A stretch of 23,825 nt of DNA from the NCBI GenBank assembly GCA_019058015.1, contig JAHLWH010000209.1, forward strand, positions 1 to 23,825, given 5' to 3'. The position numbers were made by a program, and so were the translations under genes. The notes beneath the pieces were generated by a model. It had not been told where the DNA came from, searched no databases, and saw only the letters and a list, made by a program, of their open reading frames with translations. Origin of the DNA: Promethearchaeota archaeon. Its GTDB lineage: Archaea; Asgardarchaeota; Lokiarchaeia; Sigyniarchaeales; SOKP01. Below, one piece after another: positions 622 to 23,825 of this stretch (position 1 is its first letter; each line of letters begins with the position of its first letter).

Positions 622-1860
622 TTATTTTTTATATTTTAGAATAATTTTTTCAAATTCAGGTTCTGTGACAAATTTCTTTTTTGAAATAATATCTCGGAGT
701 TCCTGTTTGATATCATTAAGGTGTTTCTCATATTTATCAAATTTTAATTCTTCACATTTAAACCTAATTGCATCTCCATGCAATGTTGTAGGTCCAAAAA
801 TTAATTGTTCTTTTTGTCCTACAACCTTATCTTTATACGGTGTGAAACACATCCAAAATTTGTCTTTTTTGATAGCACTCATTACATGTAGTTCACTTTC
901 ATGTAAGAAAGTATTTTCACCAACCACTGGTTTATTTGGGGGTATTTTTATACCAGATTTTTCTTCAACAAGTTTAGAAAGTTCATAAAGTTTTGAGAGA
1001 TCAATTCCCGTATCGATTCCATATAAAATTTTTAAAGAAACAACAACTTCTTCCAGTGATGCATTACCAGCTCGATCGCCTAACTGATTCACGACAAGAT
1101 CCATAAATTCTGCCCCTTGTTCGACTGCTGCAATAGAAGATGCTGTTGCAAGACCGAAGTCATCATGGATATGAATTCCTAATGGAATATCTCCACAAAT
1201 TGGTTTAATTTCCTTAATCATATAGGAAATTGCACGAGGATGACATGCTCCCACTGTATCATATAAAAGAACCTTTTTTACTCCATGTTTTATACCCCTT
1301 CTAATTGCATCTTTTAACAGAGTTAAATCTGTTCTTGTTGCATCCACACAATCCAATATAGCAGTTCCACCATATTTTCTGATTTTTCTTAAAGTTAAAG
1401 GGATGATATTTAACATAACTTGGGGTGAAACTCTACTATCTCCTGTAAATAATTCTAATTGCCATGAGGTTAAAACAATTCCATAACCGATATAATCAAC
1501 CTTGGCGTCTAATGCCTTTTGTATTTCTTCATCCCATTTTATTGGATTGGAGCTAAGATGGCAATATGTTTTAATTTTTAATCCCAATTCTTTAATTTTA
1601 TTAGCTAAATCCCATTGTTCTTGAACTCTTCCAATGTATCCAACATCAATATCTCCAACTCCAACTTCCTCTAATTTTTCAACAATATTAATTTTATCCT
1701 CTAATGTATAATAAACACCTGGTGTTTCTTCTCCTTCACGAATGGTACTATCACGGACATAAACTTTTTTAGGAAAATTAAAATCTTTTAAAACGTTTTC
1801 ACTAAAATTGAGAGGAGAAATCCACCACTTATCAGTGAACCATCTATTATATTCTGACAT
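622..1860 (-). CDS. DRE-TIM metallolyase, homocitrate/2-isopropylmalate synthase (LeuA/NifV/AksA) family, no C-terminal regulatory domain
   Basis: Motifs DSTIREGEETPG, YDTVG, HIHDDFGLATA, LGDRAGNASLEEV, PPNKPVVGENTFLHES; 412 aa. Confidence 0.88.
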   Translation of the reverse strand: MSEYNRWFTDKWWISPLNFSENVLKDFNFPKKVYVRDSTIREGEETPGVYYTLEDKINIVEKLEEVGVGDIDVGYIGRVQEQWDLANKIKELGLKIKTYCHLSSNPIKWDEEIQKALDAKVDYIGYGIVLTSWQLELFTGDSRVSPQVMLNIIPLTLRKIRKYGGTAILDCVDATRTDLTLLKDAIRRGIKHGVKKVLLYDTVGACHPRAISYMIKEIKPICGDIPLGIHIHDDFGLATASSIAAVEQGAEFMDLVVNQLGDRAGNASLEEVVVSLKILYGIDTGIDLSKLYELSKLVEEKSGIKIPPNKPVVGENTFLHESELHVMSAIKKDKFWMCFTPYKDKVVGQKEQLIFGPTTLHGDAIRFKCEELKFDKYEKHLNDIKQELRDIISKKKFVTEPEFEKIILKYKK

Positions 1861-1977: not shown

Positions 1978-3195
1978 ATGTGGGTAAATCCTTGGGCATA
2001 TATGAGAATGGATAAAAACCAACGTTGGTGGAGTTTTGAATGGAATTTTATTGACCGTGTTAGAAACCAGATGAATTTGCCACAAAAGGTAATAATTAAA
2101 GATGACACATTAAGAGAAGGGGAAGAGACTCCCGGAACATATTTTACAATAGACCAAAAAGTAGACATTGCTAAAATTCTTGAAGAAATGGGAATCCCAG
2201 AAATTGAAGTAGGATATGCTGCTGGGATCAAAGAACATGCTGAAACTTTTAAAGTATTAAAAAAAGAAGGGATAAAGATGAAATTATCTTCCCATGCACG
2301 CCTATATGCAAAAGATGTTATTAAAGAAGTTGATGATATTATCGCTGCAGAAGCGGATATAATAAACTTTTTACTTGTGCCTGATCCCGTATTAAAGAGT
2401 AAAAATGATGTATTTAACAGAATCACTGAAGGTATTGAATATGCAAAATCACAATCTGCTTATGTAGCATTTGGATCAGGGCGTGTAGCTCCGCGTTATT
2501 GGGAAAAGTTTTGTAATCTTGCGTTGGATGCTGGTGTTGATAGAATAGTAGTTTATGATGGAAATGGATGTGCCCTTCCTACAGCTTTTAAAGATCAAGT
2601 GGCATTTACTAAAAATATTGTTAAAGAAACTCCAATAGAAGTCCATTGTCATAATGATCTGGGGTTAGCTGTCGCAAACACACTTGCGGGAGTAGAAGGA
2701 GGTGCAGAAATAGTTGATGTTGTGTTTAACGGTCTTGGGGATAGGGCAGGGAATGCAGCTACTGAAGAAGTAATTATGGGACTTGAAATTCTATACGGAA
2801 TAGATTTAAATTTAAAACTTGAAAAAATTATGGAAATTTCACAAATAATTGAAAAATACAGTAAAACGCAATTACAACCACATAAAGCTATTGTAGGCAA
2901 AAATTGTTATATTCATGAATCTGATTTGCACGTAGAACAAATTTTAACTGGTAATTGGGTTACTTGGGAATTAATTCAACCCCATGTTATAGGACAAACT
3001 CGAAAATTGATATTTGGTGCTACCACACTTCAATCTCGAGCAATAAAAGCAAAATTGAGTAAAATGGGATTAAACCCAACTGATAAAGAAATTCAAACTC
3101 TACGAACCGAAATCAAAACCTTAATTAAGACCAAGGAATTCATTTCTGAAGAAGAATTTGAGAAATTAGCAAAAAAAATTGTAAAAACGGAGTAA
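1978..3195 (+). CDS. DRE-TIM metallolyase, homocitrate/2-isopropylmalate synthase family (paralog of 622..1860)
   Basis: Motifs DDTLREGEETPG, HCHNDLGLAVAN, GLGDRAGNAATEEV, QPHKAIVGKNCYIHES; 405 aa. Confidence 0.88.
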   Translation: MWVNPWAYMRMDKNQRWWSFEWNFIDRVRNQMNLPQKVIIKDDTLREGEETPGTYFTIDQKVDIAKILEEMGIPEIEVGYAAGIKEHAETFKVLKKEGIKMKLSSHARLYAKDVIKEVDDIIAAEADIINFLLVPDPVLKSKNDVFNRITEGIEYAKSQSAYVAFGSGRVAPRYWEKFCNLALDAGVDRIVVYDGNGCALPTAFKDQVAFTKNIVKETPIEVHCHNDLGLAVANTLAGVEGGAEIVDVVFNGLGDRAGNAATEEVIMGLEILYGIDLNLKLEKIMEISQIIEKYSKTQLQPHKAIVGKNCYIHESDLHVEQILTGNWVTWELIQPHVIGQTRKLIFGATTLQSRAIKAKLSKMGLNPTDKEIQTLRTEIKTLIKTKEFISEEEFEKLAKKIVKTE

Positions 3196-9385: not shown

Positions 9386-9916
9386 TTATTGGTTGATATG
9401 AAATTTTTTCAGTAAATATTCATTTCTATCAACTTCTTCACTGAATTCTTCAATTTTTTTGATTTCCCAAGCAATTTTATTAATTTTTTCTTGATTTCCT
9501 AATTCCTGATATATATCTAATGCTCGTCGATAATAGTCAATAGCGAATGCATATTTACCTAATATTTCGAAATCACTGGCAATATATACCATACTCTCCG
9601 CTTCACCTAGTTCATCTCCAAGTTCTTTATGAATCTTCATTGCCTGTTGAAAGGATTGCAATCCTTTGGCAAAATCTTTCCTAATTGCATGGATTTGTCC
9701 TAAATTTTTTAATACCTCAGCTTCAAGATTTTTATCTGCTTCCTTTCGTGAATAATCCAACATCTCCGTTAATAAAGTAAGTAATTTATTGCTATCTCTC
9801 TTAGAGTGGACAAATACCAATGCCATTTTAAAGTATTCAAGAGATTTTGCAATATCCTTTTTGTGAAAAAATTCTAAGCTCTTTTCGTATAGACTTGGTA
9901 AATTTGCTGTGGTCAT
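9386..9916 (-). CDS. Tetratricopeptide repeat protein
   Basis: TPR-like helical repeats (EAEVLKNLGQIH...GLQSFQQAMKIHKELGD; AIDYYRRALDIYQELGN). Confidence 0.88.
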   Translation of the reverse strand: MTTANLPSLYEKSLEFFHKKDIAKSLEYFKMALVFVHSKRDSNKLLTLLTEMLDYSRKEADKNLEAEVLKNLGQIHAIRKDFAKGLQSFQQAMKIHKELGDELGEAESMVYIASDFEILGKYAFAIDYYRRALDIYQELGNQEKINKIAWEIKKIEEFSEEVDRNEYLLKKFHINQ

Positions 9917-14323: not shown

Positions 14324-17020
14324 TTATCCATATAGATTTATTTTTTTAACAATAAATCTTATGGATCTACGAGCAAGATAATACATTAAAATACCGTATA
14401 GCCCAAAGTGATGTTTCAACGCCCCAAGAGTAGAATAGATATAGCTAGTTGCGCCAAAATAATCTTGAGTTAATGAATATTCACCTTTTAGAAGATCTGG
14501 TTTTATTATATCTCCGTTTAGATTCGGAGGACGACCAAATGATTTTACTTTATTCCAGCGTGTATCATTAAAATCGATTTGAGACCATGAATCATTACTA
14601 AATTCCTCTTTTTTATAGCAAACCCATGATTTATCAGAGTAAAATTCTTGTATAGAATTATTATCCAATAAAATTTGACCAAAAATATTAAAAGCTCCTC
14701 CAAAACCTTGATAATTTATACCCTTTATAGCTATTAAATTGTTCCCTTTTTTTAGTAAATTAGTAATATCAAATGTTTTAACTCGTCTTGCGATTGGGAC
14801 AATATGGAGCGAAAATCTACTTAAAACTTTCCCAATAAGAGTTCCATTTACATATATTTCAATATAATTGCCTGCGATTCCTTGAATAATTGCTTTCTTA
14901 ATATTTTGATCAATTTTTATAACCTTTCTAAAATACCTAGGCTTTGGTGGGTTTTCAAATTCTTTTACCCAAATCCACTTAGATTCTAAATATGGATCAA
15001 CAAATTGTATATTCTGATTGAGTTCTTCTATTTTTTTATTATAAGCATTAATGACAAAATCAAAAAGAATGAGAATTTGGTCGAGACAAGGTCGTTTTGC
15101 AGATCTAAGCCATAATTCTTCAAATCTATTTTTCAAATAAGTGAATTTATTTTTCACTTCTTCCAATTGTGGGATTATCTTCTCTCTTAATTCATCATTT
15201 AAGTCGTTTGATTTTAATAAATTAGTTATTGATATAGATGTTTTAATTTTTTCACTCAAAATATGAGCCAATTCAGCTCCAAACTTAATGTACTCAAAAT
15301 TTTCCTTGTTAAATTTAACAAAATTCTCAAGTTCTTCATAAATTCTTAGGGATTCTATTGCATTTTCTTCCATTAATTCATATTTATCAAAAGGTGATTT
15401 AATTTTCTCGGATGTAAATGGATGTTTGAAAAGATACGTAAAAAACAAAGGCGGTAAGAATATCGACATTTTTTTATATAATTTTGGCATTGAACTTAGA
15501 GTGTTAAATAGTTTGAAATATCTTTCTTGGTCTTTCTTTTCTATCCCATAAAATAAAAAACCATAATTTTTAACAATATCTTCATAATTATCAAACCTAG
15601 AATTCCATGAAACAGTGGCACCTAATATTCCACCAAAAAGTGTATTATCTCTAAAAGAATAATAATGGTGATCCCCCCAAATACTATTCAGCATACCAAT
15701 AACCCCGCGGTCTTTATTATTGATTCCTTGTTTCGTCAAATTGATTATATTTTTACTTGCATTTATATTATCCGGAAAATTTCTGCACCAATTCAACATT
15801 GAAGGACTTACGATTACCTTGAAACCTGCATCCAATAATTTATCCAAATCTTTATAATAATCCCTTGGAGTATATTCCCAATACATTAATATTATATTTT
15901 TATTGAGATTTTCTAAGATATTTTCATCAGTAATGGGAATGTCATGATACATCACAATTTTATCTTTCCCAGCCCCAGTTACCATCTCATAAATTTTATT
16001 ATAAAAATCTATAAGTACCTTCCCCTTTCCCTCCTTTTCTACTAAATCCCTTGACCTTATCGTTCCTAGATCAAAACTCTCATCACATCCGATGTGGAAC
16101 CATTTACTGGAGAATGCCTCACTTAATATGTCTATAAAGCTTTTTAGGAAGGGAAATATTTCTGGATTTGAAACATCAACACATCCACTTCCAGGAAATT
16201 CGGCTAAATTCCAATAATCCTCAATCATAAAGATATTATCTTGATGACCAATACAATTGTAAATAGGAAAGAAGTTTACAAATCTTTCTTTTGCGTATTT
16301 ATCAATCTCTCTGATTTCTTCGACTGTTAATGCACCTCTATTTTTTCCAATTTTTGGATGATCAGGATTAATAATCATATCCTGAAAATAACAAGGACAA
16401 AAAGTATTCAACTTATAATGGCTAAGTATTTTTATGAACCGTTTGGCTCCTATTAAACTAAAGACTTGTCCCCTGGCAATATCTTCAGTTATACCACGAA
16501 TTCTTAAATCAGGATAATCAATTATTTCAATTTCAGGAAGAATAATATGTTTTCGATTTTCTTTTTTTTTAGATAATTGTATTTTATTTTTCAAAAAACC
16601 ATTTTTAAAAATCTGAATTAATGTTTGAATGGCATAAAACAATCCTTGTTCAGTTTTGGAATAAATAATAACTGTCTTATTCGAAATAATTAAGCCATAC
16701 CCTTCATCATCGATAATTTTATCTCCATTAATGCGTTTAATATATTCAATATCTTTAAAATCTTCAATTATGCCAGAATTTTCATAATTCAACGCACAAA
16801 ATTGGTTTAGAGCCTCATTAACATCATCTACAAAAAATTGTGATCTTTCAGTACCATAATAAAAGAATTTTGACTCTCCTTTAAGCGAAAAGGAATAATT
16901 ACCGCCACCTATGGTTAATTTTTTCGGTGCTGGAATTAAAATTGGTTTCTCAGATGGGGTGTTTTTGGTCTTATCGAGATTTTTAATAATAAAAAATTTT
17001 AAATTCTTCAAGAAATTCAC
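14324..17020 (-). CDS. Glycoside hydrolase family 20 (beta-N-acetylhexosaminidase-like) with GH20b N-domain and C-terminal rhamnosidase-N/CBM-like beta-sandwich
   Basis: LIPAP, EGYGL, GLFYAIQTL, IIDYPDLRIRG..DIARG and catalytic HIGCDE; C-terminal SKWIW..PRYFRK..SDKSW. GTG start, no signal peptide. Confidence 0.92.
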   Translation of the reverse strand: MNFLKNLKFFIIKNLDKTKNTPSEKPILIPAPKKLTIGGGNYSFSLKGESKFFYYGTERSQFFVDDVNEALNQFCALNYENSGIIEDFKDIEYIKRINGDKIIDDEGYGLIISNKTVIIYSKTEQGLFYAIQTLIQIFKNGFLKNKIQLSKKKENRKHIILPEIEIIDYPDLRIRGITEDIARGQVFSLIGAKRFIKILSHYKLNTFCPCYFQDMIINPDHPKIGKNRGALTVEEIREIDKYAKERFVNFFPIYNCIGHQDNIFMIEDYWNLAEFPGSGCVDVSNPEIFPFLKSFIDILSEAFSSKWFHIGCDESFDLGTIRSRDLVEKEGKGKVLIDFYNKIYEMVTGAGKDKIVMYHDIPITDENILENLNKNIILMYWEYTPRDYYKDLDKLLDAGFKVIVSPSMLNWCRNFPDNINASKNIINLTKQGINNKDRGVIGMLNSIWGDHHYYSFRDNTLFGGILGATVSWNSRFDNYEDIVKNYGFLFYGIEKKDQERYFKLFNTLSSMPKLYKKMSIFLPPLFFTYLFKHPFTSEKIKSPFDKYELMEENAIESLRIYEELENFVKFNKENFEYIKFGAELAHILSEKIKTSISITNLLKSNDLNDELREKIIPQLEEVKNKFTYLKNRFEELWLRSAKRPCLDQILILFDFVINAYNKKIEELNQNIQFVDPYLESKWIWVKEFENPPKPRYFRKVIKIDQNIKKAIIQGIAGNYIEIYVNGTLIGKVLSRFSLHIVPIARRVKTFDITNLLKKGNNLIAIKGINYQGFGGAFNIFGQILLDNNSIQEFYSDKSWVCYKKEEFSNDSWSQIDFNDTRWNKVKSFGRPPNLNGDIIKPDLLKGEYSLTQDYFGATSYIYSTLGALKHHFGLYGILMYYLARRSIRFIVKKINLYG
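16460..17020 (-). repeat. Copy A of ~560-bp diverged direct repeat (5' end of the intact GH20 gene)
   Basis: Collinear with 19890..20449 at offset 3429-3430 with a single 1-nt indel; hand count 91/150 identical residues. Confidence 0.9.
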
Positions 17021-19884: not shown

Positions 19885-20449
19885 GTAAAAAATACTTGCC
19901 CTCGAGCGATATCTTCTGTCACACCTCGCATGCTTAAATCGAGATAATCAATTACTTCAATTTCTGGCAGAACAATATGTTTTCGAGCCTTTTTTTTTCT
20001 GTTAGTTGAATCTTATTTTTTAAAAAACCGTTTTTAAATATATGAATTAAAGTCTGGACACCATAAAATAACCCTTGATCAGTTTTAGAATAAGTTGCCA
20101 CCATGTTATTCGAAATAATCAACCCATAACTCTCATCATCTTTAAGATTTCTCTCATTGATACGATTTTTTGATTGAATGTCTTTGAAAACTTCAAAAGT
20201 GCCAGAATATTCATATTTCAGAGCGCAAAATTTATCAAGCGCATCATTTATATCATCTAATATCAATTTAGATTTCTCTGTATTAAAAAAGTAAAATTCC
20301 GAATCTTCTTTTAATGAATATGCATAATTTTTTTTACCAAGAATAAGCTGTTGAGGTGGTGGAATCAAAATAGGTCTCTCTGAAGATAAATTCTCTAATT
20401 TTTCAAGATTTGTAATAATTAAACCCTTTAGATTTTTCAAGCAATTCAC
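19885..20449 (-). pseudogene. Truncated, frameshifted 5' fragment of a GH20 gene (copy B)
   Basis: Homologous to residues ~1-187 of 14324..17020. A 1-nt deletion lies in the T-run at ~19990..19998. The shifted frame continues KHIVLPEIEVIDYLDLSMRGVTEDIARGQVF, then homology stops. No catalytic barrel. Confidence 0.88.
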
Positions 20450-22802: not shown

Positions 22803-23825
22803 ATGATTAATAAAATCGAATTAATGAATGATTTTTCAATAGAGATTGAAGATATTGATAAAATCTGCTATGATAAATCTTCCAAAATATTTTCTGTTGA
22901 TCTTTTTGATTTTAAATTTATAGGTCTTTATAGAAAATCGACAAAAATAAGAAAAATCTTAGATGAGATCTATACTTTATTGAGAGACTTACCAGTAAAA
23001 CGCAATGATCTTTTTCTTTTAAATTTAAAAAACTGGAAACCAATCTCTGAAAAAAGTAAAATAAAGCAACTGAATTTGACAAAAAATGATGAGTTTGTAT
23101 TTGGAATAAGGTTTAATATTAATATAATCGATGAAAATATTGAACAGCATAAATTATTTAGAGATATTTTCCCTCACAAGATACCTTTTAATATGATTCT
23201 ACAGAAATTCACAACAGATGTGGGCATAGATAATAGATCTTTTGAACTTTATGTAAAAGAAAAATCTATGGCTCAGTGGATTTTATTCGAGGATAATGGT
23301 GAGAAACTATTTGAAGATATAATAAGTGAATACGGAAATGTTTTTGAATTGCGAATTAAGAAATTTGAATTAAAAGAAGAAAAATATCTTGTAATATATT
23401 TTGAAAATAAGCTATTGCCAGAGCACGAACTTGTGCCATTCCCAGTTTTACCTACTTCGACTATAACTGATCTTTTACCCGAATTATCAAAAAAATTTAA
23501 TATTCAACCACAAGATGTATCTATAACAGAAAAATATGGAACTATATTTTCACCAGAAGATTATATGCTACCAATTAAAGAATTGAAGGAAAAATATGGA
23601 GATACGTTTGATATAATTGAAATCCATTTTGCAGGTGGTGGTCCTCCTCCTCCAATGGAAAAAGATATGTTTGTAGAAGAAATTAAAGAGGAAGAGAAGA
23701 AAAAATTACGGAAAAAAGCATTACCTTCAACATTATCACGCCCAGCAGGTCCACCTAGATCTAAAGAAGTTAGTAAACAAGAAGTTCCTAAATTGGCTTC
23801 AGTGATGGCACCTTCTCTACCAGAA
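22803..23825 (+). CDS. Protein with putative tandem ubiquitin-like/UFM1-like beta-grasp domains, internal AGG and Pro-rich linker; 3' end beyond right window edge
   Basis: Open frame of 341 codons from ATG 22803 to the window end. Segments KPISEKSKIKQLNLTKNDEFVF (ubiquitin-like), IPFNMILQKF..EDIISEYGNVFELR and LVIYFEN..STITDLLPELSKKFNIQPQDVSI..ELKEKYGDTFDIIEIHFAGG (UFM1-like). The ORF is solid; the domain call is by eye. Not in the ORF track. Confidence 0.7.
   Translation, partial: MINKIELMNDFSIEIEDIDKICYDKSSKIFSVDLFDFKFIGLYRKSTKIRKILDEIYTLLRDLPVKRNDLFLLNLKNWKPISEKSKIKQLNLTKNDEFVFGIRFNINIIDENIEQHKLFRDIFPHKIPFNMILQKFTTDVGIDNRSFELYVKEKSMAQWILFEDNGEKLFEDIISEYGNVFELRIKKFELKEEKYLVIYFENKLLPEHELVPFPVLPTSTITDLLPELSKKFNIQPQDVSITEKYGTIFSPEDYMLPIKELKEKYGDTFDIIEIHFAGGGPPPPMEKDMFVEEIKEEEKKKLRKKALPSTLSRPAGPPRSKEVSKQEVPKLASVMAPSLPE

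Follow-up and report, generated by a model that had tools for sequence, protein, structure and literature searches.

UFM1-like domains in the head of a predicted hairpin-anchored membrane protein of Asgard archaea

At the 3′ end of a 23,825-nucleotide stretch of DNA from a Promethearchaeota archaeon (contig JAHLWH010000209.1 of assembly GCA_019058015.1; the whole stretch is called the window below) lies an open reading frame (ORF) that appears to be the front part of a gene for a membrane protein with ubiquitin-like (UBL) folds in its head. The ORF opens with an ATG at 22803 and continues on the forward strand for 341 codons to 23825, without a stop before the window's last base. Along it, all on the forward strand, are a first beta-grasp unit (unit 1 or D1, residues ~22-103, 22866..23111), which is the conserved N-terminal head of a whole Asgard family; a second (unit 2, residues ~104-187, 23112..23363), a diverged UFM1-like beta-grasp with an extra helix and without a terminal Gly; a third (unit 3, residues 194-277, 23382..23633), a well-preserved UFM1-like domain; three Gly (G278-G279-G280, ggt codons, 23634..23642), the first aligning with the C-terminal Gly of free modifiers; and the first 61 residues (23643..23825) of a disordered tether rich in Pro, Lys and Glu. 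A first-pass annotation had proposed one ubiquitin-like and two UFM1-like domains here and had considered a multi-UBL precursor in the manner of ISG15 or FAT10, cut at the Gly run. A partial relative with 93% identity has been deposited as 'hypothetical protein' under the label Candidatus Lokiarchaeota.

Because the window is a complete contig (G000:C213, G+C ~28%, from a 3.84 Mb assembly of 283 contigs that is 94.4% complete), the open 3′ end of the ORF is an assembly break and not biology. When the 611-amino-acid (aa) relative P0003 was compared with the window's genome by tblastn, its residues 1-341 matched the window and its residues 357-611 matched the end of another contig, C145, with 83% identity. 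Read in reverse complement, C145 starts in an open, matching frame of 269 residues (6509 down to 5703, reverse strand), with some two codons seemingly missing between the contigs. P0060 (612 aa, 94% identical to the window part) bridges the two, reading ...APSLPE-RA-VYKRDEIQ... with two residues between, and uninterrupted ORFs of 616 and 615 aa are present in the same-genus genomes G144 and G040. From these alignments we infer that the two contig ends join into one gene for a protein of ~612 aa, of which 22803..23825 supplies the N-terminal 341 codons and C145 the remaining ~269.

The part on C145 encodes a conserved beta-rich domain of ~170 aa (motif Y.INMGLQYYSVMME...) followed by two adjacent hydrophobic helices, with Kyte-Doolittle peaks of at least 1.6 (averaged over 19 residues) at residues 193-218 and 219-252 of that part; by the same measure no hydrophobic helix segment is present in the window part (maximum 0.97). 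Given that there is no N-terminal signal-like segment and that the C-terminal tail is basic, the topology is likely to be a C-terminal hairpin with all other parts cytoplasmic. The tether leads from the head to this C-terminal domain and hairpin; its stretch in the window has 11 Pro, 10 Lys and 9 Glu among 61 residues, and a predicted local distance difference test (pLDDT) of 34-45 in the alignment-based AlphaFold2 (AF2) model described below. What had been seen as a charged, Pro-rich, disordered tail is so in composition and in low pLDDT, but it is an internal tether with ~270 residues more to follow. The C-terminal domain of P0003 matches no Pfam family, a PDB profile search of it with the 149-row alignment A2 was empty, and in the ESM Atlas only unannotated Promethearchaeota clusters were found, none with a stored model. 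With the window protein the sole Pfam signal at E ≤10 is USP7_C2, at E 0.0035 and below cut-off, and nothing was found in NCBIfam.

Prediction of the 341 aa from single sequence gave a pLDDT of 34 and was unusable. Among the alignments made, A2 placed free UBLs on unit 3 in 0/22 instances, A3 did place them there, but with UFC1 halves and core linkers aligned as noise, and alignments lacking fusions to E2 enzymes placed 0/11; the alignment used in their place (A4) has 47 rows, the first being the window's own 341 aa. With A4 the mean pLDDT is 78, ten-residue blocks are at 82-97 across most of the three units with dips to 73-78 within and right after unit 2, and values are below 50 at residues 1-10 and from residue 278 onward. 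Residues 22-103, 104-185 and 196-273 each have the order strand-strand-helix-strand-strand-(helix)-strand. Foldseek of this model returned at least 239 PDB matches at E ≤0.001, headed by linear tetra-, tri- and di-ubiquitin, the USP7 UBL array and ISG15 over 240-325 aligned columns (tetra-ubiquitin 7yui_A at E 1.1e-11 over 241 columns; USP7 UBL array 5c6d_B over 305), and Foldseek's best 995 PDB chains were rescored with VIA-align. By this modelling, the presence of three beta-grasp domains in the ORF, as supposed at first sight, is confirmed.

In the rescored set ranks 1-9 of 995 are all UFM1 chains on unit 3, with Z 12.0-12.8. The unit superposes on 8qfc_E at Z 12.3 (root-mean-square deviation 1.2 Å, 76/76 residues) and on 5ia7_B at 1.6 Å over 79/79 residues, while for 8bzr_B UFM1 residues 2..83 superpose on model residues 194..279 and UFM1's Gly83 maps onto model residues 279-280, in the window's Gly run. 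Ranks 10-11, at Z 10.7-10.8, are the nuclear magnetic resonance entries 1l7y and 1j0g, whose titles do not name UFM1 and which we take to be UFM1 orthologues. The next different UBLs are TBK1-ULD (Z 10.1), ISG15 (10.0) and SUMO1 (9.8), and with no unrelated UBL above 10.1 the UFM1-like character proposed for this unit is upheld. Pfam's Ufm1 family, PF03671, has no match in the 341 aa at E ≤10 and none in the window's genome at E ≤0.1, and a profile of the unit's own family (A1), which had taken in the E2 half, found no UFM1 chain in the PDB at E ≤10, its best match being a redesigned ubiquitin at E 0.042; unit 3 is 'UFM1-like' and not a Pfam Ufm1 member by sequence. A hidden Markov model (HMM) of free or E2-fused relatives only finds unit 3 at E 3.3e-27. 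In a tree of UBL units its clade (100/99) falls within the free and fused modifiers, with a long stem branch (0.68), and the closest modifier is P0175, a UBL-UFC1 fusion of G040, at 49% identity. Unit 3 very probably descends from an Asgard UFM1-type modifier.

Unit 2, with pLDDT 73-94, is further removed. In hhalign it aligns with unit 3 at 87% probability, in register from helix 1 to the last strand, and ...EYGNVFEL of unit 2 falls on ...KYGDTFDI of unit 3, the ending common to both units that had been noticed earlier being thus a true alignment. Compared with a profile of the free and E2-fused modifiers it scores a probability of 94.5% (E 7.7e-8, score 43.3, 56 columns), whereas 30 column shuffles reached at most a probability of 5.1 and a score of 18.7, which bears out its provisional designation as UFM1-like. 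ISG15 superposes over model residues 101-275, covering units 2 and 3, at Z 9.4-9.7 (VIA-align). In the tree unit 2 forms a separate long-branch clade (100/100), and it occurs in a minority of the host family (P0003/4/5/7/44/59-63). As judged from the profiles, it belongs to unit 3's UBL family as a copy that has diverged.

For unit 1 the ubiquitin likeness once suggested was borne out for the fold and not beyond it. Its AF2 blocks are at pLDDT 91-97, in the order strand-strand-helix-strand-strand-strand; the fold assignment is indirect, coming from this order and from the USP7 array alignments of 305-325 columns, which are reachable only if unit 1 is included. The VIA-align table has no row that covers the unit. 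Against the UBL family profile it gives an hhalign probability of 1.2%, the same as shuffles and so no sequence link, and a D1 profile found nothing credible in the PDB (best E 0.012, a CbiG homologue). Only the fold is common to unit 1 and the UBL family. Its own relatives are of another kind: residues ~13-95 match the N-termini of dozens of members of the host family at 34-50% identity, and some 40 of 56 phmmer matches (below) cover this region only.

The Gly run begins after A277 (gca, 23631-23633) and leads directly into PPPP; the Gly codons of the HFAGG originally pointed out are as described, apart from the addition of a third Gly (23634-23642). Predicted disorder begins exactly at G278, where the pLDDT falls below 50. 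In A4 the column of G278 is Gly in 18/18 family members that reach it (4/22 end earlier) and in 6/6 three-unit proteins (P0001 being truncated), and the same-genus orthologues in G144, G040 and G177 all read HFAGGGPPP, so that the conservation on which the first-pass annotation had made its case depend is present. The surroundings differ: the preceding residue is V in 17/18 of the modifier family and A or T in three-unit proteins, position -4 is R in 17/20 of the family and I in the window's genus, and the second Gly and the Pro run are specific to the three-unit group. Since the three-unit clade is shallow (60-94% identity), conservation of the Gly is weak evidence of selection either way. 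Because the gene runs on into a conserved domain and two hydrophobic helices, ~333 residues lie C-terminal of the Gly-Gly in the full protein; a conjugating Gly at or near the C-terminus is found in P0182-185 and P0008, not here. One three-unit relative, P0002 (302 aa), ends 23 residues after its Gly-Gly; these last residues resemble a frame-shifted version of the P0059 linker, from a C/T-rich run of Pro codons, and the early end may reflect a frameshift, whether an assembly error or a natural soluble form.

The family to which unit 3 belongs has members of a more conventional kind. Free relatives P0182-185 (87-89 aa, ...INRG[IV]VG) and P0008 (...VVG) end exactly at the Gly, and P0024 is a UBL with a few residues past it. 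In ten clusters a short linker after the Gly joins the UBL to an E2 domain that is also found alone (~180 aa). The E2 is of UFC1 type: 17/17 members match PF08694 (best E 2e-7), and the best 26 PDB matches of its profile are all UFC1 (E 4e-6 to 1.5e-4); E2s of other types are absent from the matches listed. A ThiF-type E1, a JAB protein, the UFM1-like UBL, the UFC1-like E2, an ESCRT-II-like protein resembling EAP30/Vps22-36 and an SPFH/Band 7 protein are encoded in this order in G026 (L015, C1 6831-11532, with an 87-aa UFM1-like UBL) and in G040 (L016, C36 6452-11912, with UBL and E2 fused in 272 aa). As the E1, JAB, UBL and E2 genes share their order in two distant genomes, unit 3's family is a modifier served by an E1, an E2 and a protease of its own. 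The UBL-UFC1 fusions are probably resolved by the cassette's JAB protease. The UFC1-like E2 was detected in 13/201 genomes of the phylum, and in 3/40 of the window's family (f1). A different architecture is that of P0013 (285 aa), in which a UFM1-like domain ending ...VGGSKI is fused to a TIR domain (PF13676, E 9e-21) with a charged helix, an arrangement like that of defence proteins.

The host of units 2 and 3 is a family that generally does without them. A phmmer search of 1.8 billion representatives gave 56 matches at E ≤0.001, full-length proteins of 561-667 aa among them, and a search with P0003 gave 399 at the same threshold. Most of the best 120 of these 399 are 430-490 aa long, with unit 1 joined through a charged, Pro-rich linker to the C-terminal domain, which the hairpin follows; the equivalent linker is present in all family members. 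The window protein has both of the family's features, the D1 head and the C-terminal domain with two hydrophobic helices. Named sources among the matches listed are Promethearchaeota/Loki-, Thor-, Hermod-, Hod- or Heimdallarchaeota; the Asgard specificity of the system is supported. A single bacterial label, that of P0089 (Candidatus Neomarinimicrobiota), stands apart from the other named matches listed, and a mis-binned contig is the likely explanation. The family was found in 38/201 genomes of the phylum, 31 of them among the 40 of the window's own family.

Within it unit 3 is confined to the three-unit group (the window protein, P0001, P0002, P0003, P0059, P0060 and P0061), and unit 2 is present in that group and in P0004, P0005, P0063, P0007 and P0044. 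Full-length three-unit matches in the 201-genome sample are from the window's genus only (its own genome and 3/3 others, with a fifth genus genome, G201, 69% complete, left out of the count), and the form as a whole was seen only in that genus and one sister group at 60-63% identity; unit 2 is kept in more distant members at 28-46% identity. By this distribution units 2 and 3 read as later inserts into a family normally equipped with unit 1 alone. In P0007 and P0044 TPR-like helices, and in P0062 a beta-rich module of ~130 aa (residues ~100-230) unrelated to unit 3, occupy the position of unit 3, and because of these replacements the middle of the host protein is taken to be a cassette position for interaction modules. 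(The P0062 module and the beta-rich domain of the UFL1/DDRGK-like protein dealt with below gave a BLASTP match of E 0.074, 26% over 104 aa, which is not significant.) Ahead of unit 1, P0054 (1026 aa) and P0057 (875 aa) have a WD40-repeat region, recognized by eye, and a coiled coil; the head of the host family accepts not only inserts but also extensions at its N-terminus. Long proline runs (PPPP, PPPPAP...) occur in the tethers of all family members, e.g. in window 23643-23825, P0021, P0025 and P0126; in eukaryotes such runs are binding sites for profilin or for SH3/WW-type readers.

The conserved gene neighbours of the host family are housekeeping genes and one unannotated membrane protein of 336 aa, which has two hydrophobic helices next to each other and matches no Pfam family. 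Its gene (L019 10971-11981, reverse strand, and counterparts) is directly upstream or one gene away in 7/7 loci of other genera. In the window's genome the orthologue (G000:C247:2392-3396, 38.5% identity) is away from the host gene. That this membrane protein is a partner of the host family is possible.

A search for partner enzymes among the gene's neighbours had been suggested at first; the cognate set was not found there or elsewhere in the genome. No E1, E2 or JAB gene is on the window contig or C145. In the window's genome an HMM of the UFC1-like E2 has no match at E ≤1, an HMM of the UBL has unit 3 as its only strong match (one other ORF is at E 0.032), and the G040 cassette proteins find ThiF paralogues of 26-35% identity only, with no JAB, EAP30 or Band 7 orthologue. 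Neither was the cassette found in G144, a congener 100% complete in 10 contigs, or in G177; it is in 1/4 genus genomes (G040), where the three-unit protein is in 4/4. A UFC1-type E2 with a dedicated E1 is, then, present elsewhere in the family and was not detected in the window's genome (94% complete). Searches of that genome with PF08694 and Peptidase_C78 (UfSP) were silent, and with control genomes silent too these searches have little power.

A 788-aa UFL1/DDRGK-like protein (G000:C121:19499-21862, reverse strand; L026 1501-3864) is encoded in the window's genome. It has N-terminal Cys-rich motifs resembling zinc fingers, winged-helix repeats, a beta-rich domain and a helical C-terminus, and the winged helices score 28 bits against the DDRGK model and 51 bits against that of E3_UFM1_ligase. 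It is single-copy and present in 5/5 genus and 42/46 family genomes, including many without the UFM1/UFC1 cassette. A co-fold of unit 3 with its residues 1-470, run without controls, returned 'no answer' at a score of 0.00 and carries no weight either way.

The reading that we hold best, with moderate confidence, is of an uncleaved, membrane-tethered display of UBL domains. The ORF would be the front half of a ~612-aa, cytoplasm-facing, hairpin-anchored protein from an Asgard-specific family in which a beta-grasp head is joined by a long, disordered, Pro- and charge-rich tether to a conserved beta-rich juxtamembrane domain, after which come two transmembrane helices and a short tail of basic character. 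Two modules from an Asgard UFM1-like modifier would have been added to this head in the window's genus and in one sister group: unit 2, an older, degenerate copy whose terminal Gly was lost, and unit 3, a younger, well-preserved copy in which the modifier's terminal Gly (G278) was kept and now stands before GG-PPPP. The array would stay uncut, showing its UBL surfaces permanently on a flexible arm and bringing UBL- or UFM1-reading factors to the membrane, by analogy with the integral UBL domains of eukaryotic ubiquitin-domain proteins; absence of cleavage, recruitment and the factors recruited are what we infer here. Such a display is favoured because the gene runs on into a conserved domain and two hydrophobic helices, which puts the Gly-Gly ~333 residues from the C-terminus, because the cognate cassette was not found in 3/4 of the genus genomes that have the protein, and because the tail beside the Gly has drifted from the modifier consensus, with unit 3 on its stem of 0.68. 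Most of the listed family members have unit 1 only, and the family's job therefore needs neither units 2 and 3 nor the Gly-Gly; some members have other interaction modules in unit 3's place; unit 2 is without Gly yet folded and conserved, and the lineage therefore keeps UFM1-like domains as structural modules. Weighing on the other side is the look of a processing site, with the Gly kept in every three-unit protein, a second Gly added and flexibility starting there. In-frame fusions past the Gly are common in the modifier family (the 10 UBL-UFC1 clusters), giving cleavage a precedent, and the window's genome has four ThiF-type E1 genes, a UQ_con E2 beside a 534-aa E1 on C195 and four Prok-JAB matches above cut-off (one each on C97 and C63, two on C267), enzymes that could act on a Gly-Gly end (a ubiquitin-family ORF is also present). 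Further, G040 carries both cassette and three-unit protein, and at 94% completeness the absence of the cassette is unproven for the window's genome taken alone.

The chief competing explanation, a membrane-tethered pro-modifier, adapts the first-pass idea of a precursor to the longer gene, draws on several of these points and is in our estimate unlikely. A JAB-type or other protease would cut after G278 or G279 and free a soluble three-UBL protein with a Gly end, which a non-cognate E1, alone or with an E2, would conjugate, or which would serve simply as a released signalling protein. The Gly column kept in 18/18 family members and all three-unit proteins, the onset of disorder at G278, the mapping of UFM1 Gly83 onto model residues 279-280, free P0182-185 and P0008 ending at that Gly, and the processing implied by UBL-UFC1 fusions would all be in keeping with this, as would the residue after the GG, which is G, S, V or I and never Pro, the E1s, E2 and JAB proteases of the genome, and P0002, ending 23 residues after its GG (but read from its protein sequence as a frameshift). 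However, the E1-JAB-E2 cassette was not found in 3/4 genus genomes carrying the protein, one of them 100% complete, the residues beside the Gly depart from the modifier consensus, the basic host family is without any such site, and we know of no UBL precursor with a membrane-anchored extension of ~330 residues. Conjugation of the freed mixed three-UBL unit without a UFC1-type cassette is more doubtful again. The precursor initially envisaged, free-standing and of ISG15/FAT10 type, is not borne out, since the ORF continues on C145 into tether, conserved domain and membrane hairpin; units 2 and 3, besides, are optional additions to a family that as a rule has only unit 1. Improbable to a further degree is that the wiring is in cis, the host protein having been a docking site or target of the modifier until fusion made the cassette dispensable and it was lost from most genus genomes, with the uncleaved domain now mimicking a permanently modified state. 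Unit 3 does nest in the modifier radiation beside the family's fusion proteins, P0175 at 49% identity being closest, the 1/4 and 4/4 occurrence of cassette and three-unit protein is as such a history would leave it, and the UFL1/DDRGK-like protein is kept in 5/5 genus genomes; against this, host family (38/201, mostly one family) and cassette (13/201) seldom co-occur (31/40 and 3/40 in f1), so that the host protein works without the modifier, and there is no evidence of its being a substrate. That units 2 and 3 derive from captured copies of the modifier, accreted neutrally, without any function in themselves and decaying, seems least probable of all. The strong divergence and missing Gly tail of unit 2 and the long stem and altered tail of unit 3 are what decay might produce, but the predicted folds are compact (pLDDT 73-94 in unit 2, mostly >90 in unit 3), both units are in intact ORFs of every genus genome examined and of the sister group at 60-63% identity, and unit 2 persists in members more distant still, at 28-46% identity.

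Among known systems, eukaryotic UFM1 resembles unit 3 in that the unit superposes on its whole chains, some 2 Z units above TBK1-ULD, ISG15 and SUMO, and in that the unit's free relatives are of ~87 aa with a single terminal Gly and a UFC1-type E2 partner. It differs in that unit 3 is internal to a 612-aa membrane protein and has A or T, in place of the family's V, before the Gly, and in that the protease of the Asgard cassette is a JAB, with no C78 (UfSP) match in a search that lacked a positive control. ISG15, FAT10 and linear polyubiquitin likewise have head-to-tail beta-grasp units, but they are soluble and end at, or a few residues past, the last Gly-Gly, whereas the window protein continues for ~333 residues and is anchored in the membrane. 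Its units, moreover, belong to two sequence types with no relation to each other, and the Gly is found in the last unit alone. The C-terminal UBL array of USP7 offers a parallel in non-identical, uncleaved UBL folds serving as interaction or regulatory modules (Foldseek, 305-325 columns), though no sequence relationship was shown and the window protein is membrane-anchored and without a protease domain. In layout a further analogy is to proteins of the eukaryotic endoplasmic reticulum of HERPUD1/Usa1 and TMUB1 type, in which an N-terminal UBL in the cytosol is linked by a disordered region to a membrane hairpin, an arrangement that serves to recruit cytosolic machines to a complex in the membrane. 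That likeness is one of arrangement only, with no homology claimed, and no counterpart of the Asgard C-terminal beta-rich domain was identified.

Elsewhere in the window, a 176-aa TPR protein (9386-9916, reverse strand) has a sub-threshold match to CDK5RAP3 (E 1e-4, 21.6 against a cut-off of 22.6 bits); CDK5RAP3 is a UFMylation factor, and the match is probably coiled-coil or TPR noise. Two divergent, adjoining genes of HMGL-like/homocitrate-synthase type are at 622-1860 (reverse) and 1978-3195 (forward). A full GH20 hexosaminidase is encoded at 14324-17020 (reverse), and a separate 165-aa ORF at 19952-20449 (reverse), which matches GH20 domain 2 only, is possibly a fragment.

UFM1 was long held to be a eukaryotic invention. 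The available text of Picchianti et al. (2023) places UFM1 and UFC1 in eukaryotes only, while Ufm1 homologues in nine Asgard clades are reported in that of Koestlbacher et al. (Nat Microbiol 2026; PMC12962969), some of the hits being 'not full-length' or having 'multiple hit regions'. The first-pass annotation knew of no such architecture in Asgard archaea, where Ufm1 homologues, at any rate, are already published. The homologues in that text are very probably of the same protein family as unit 3, and the hits described there fit units 2 and 3. Its main text, supplements aside, has no membrane-anchored host family, no E2 ('UFC1' occurs 0 times) and no operon (PMC12962969). In the literature searched at the level of titles and abstracts, supplements aside, no description was found of the host family or of its two built-in UFM1-like copies, nor, in titles and abstracts, of the E1-JAB-UBL-UFC1 cassette.

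A large, unannotated family of Asgard membrane proteins with a UBL head is now defined. Were the pro-modifier alternative true, it would mean storage of a UBL modifier at the membrane and its release from there, for which there is no known parallel. On the evidence assembled, one Asgard lineage appears to have built two modifier copies into the head of a membrane protein, one with the conjugation Gly kept, and this, together with the E1-JAB-UBL-UFC1 cassette, provides testable material for a pre-eukaryotic origin of UFM1-type signalling and of membrane-tethered UBL adaptors.

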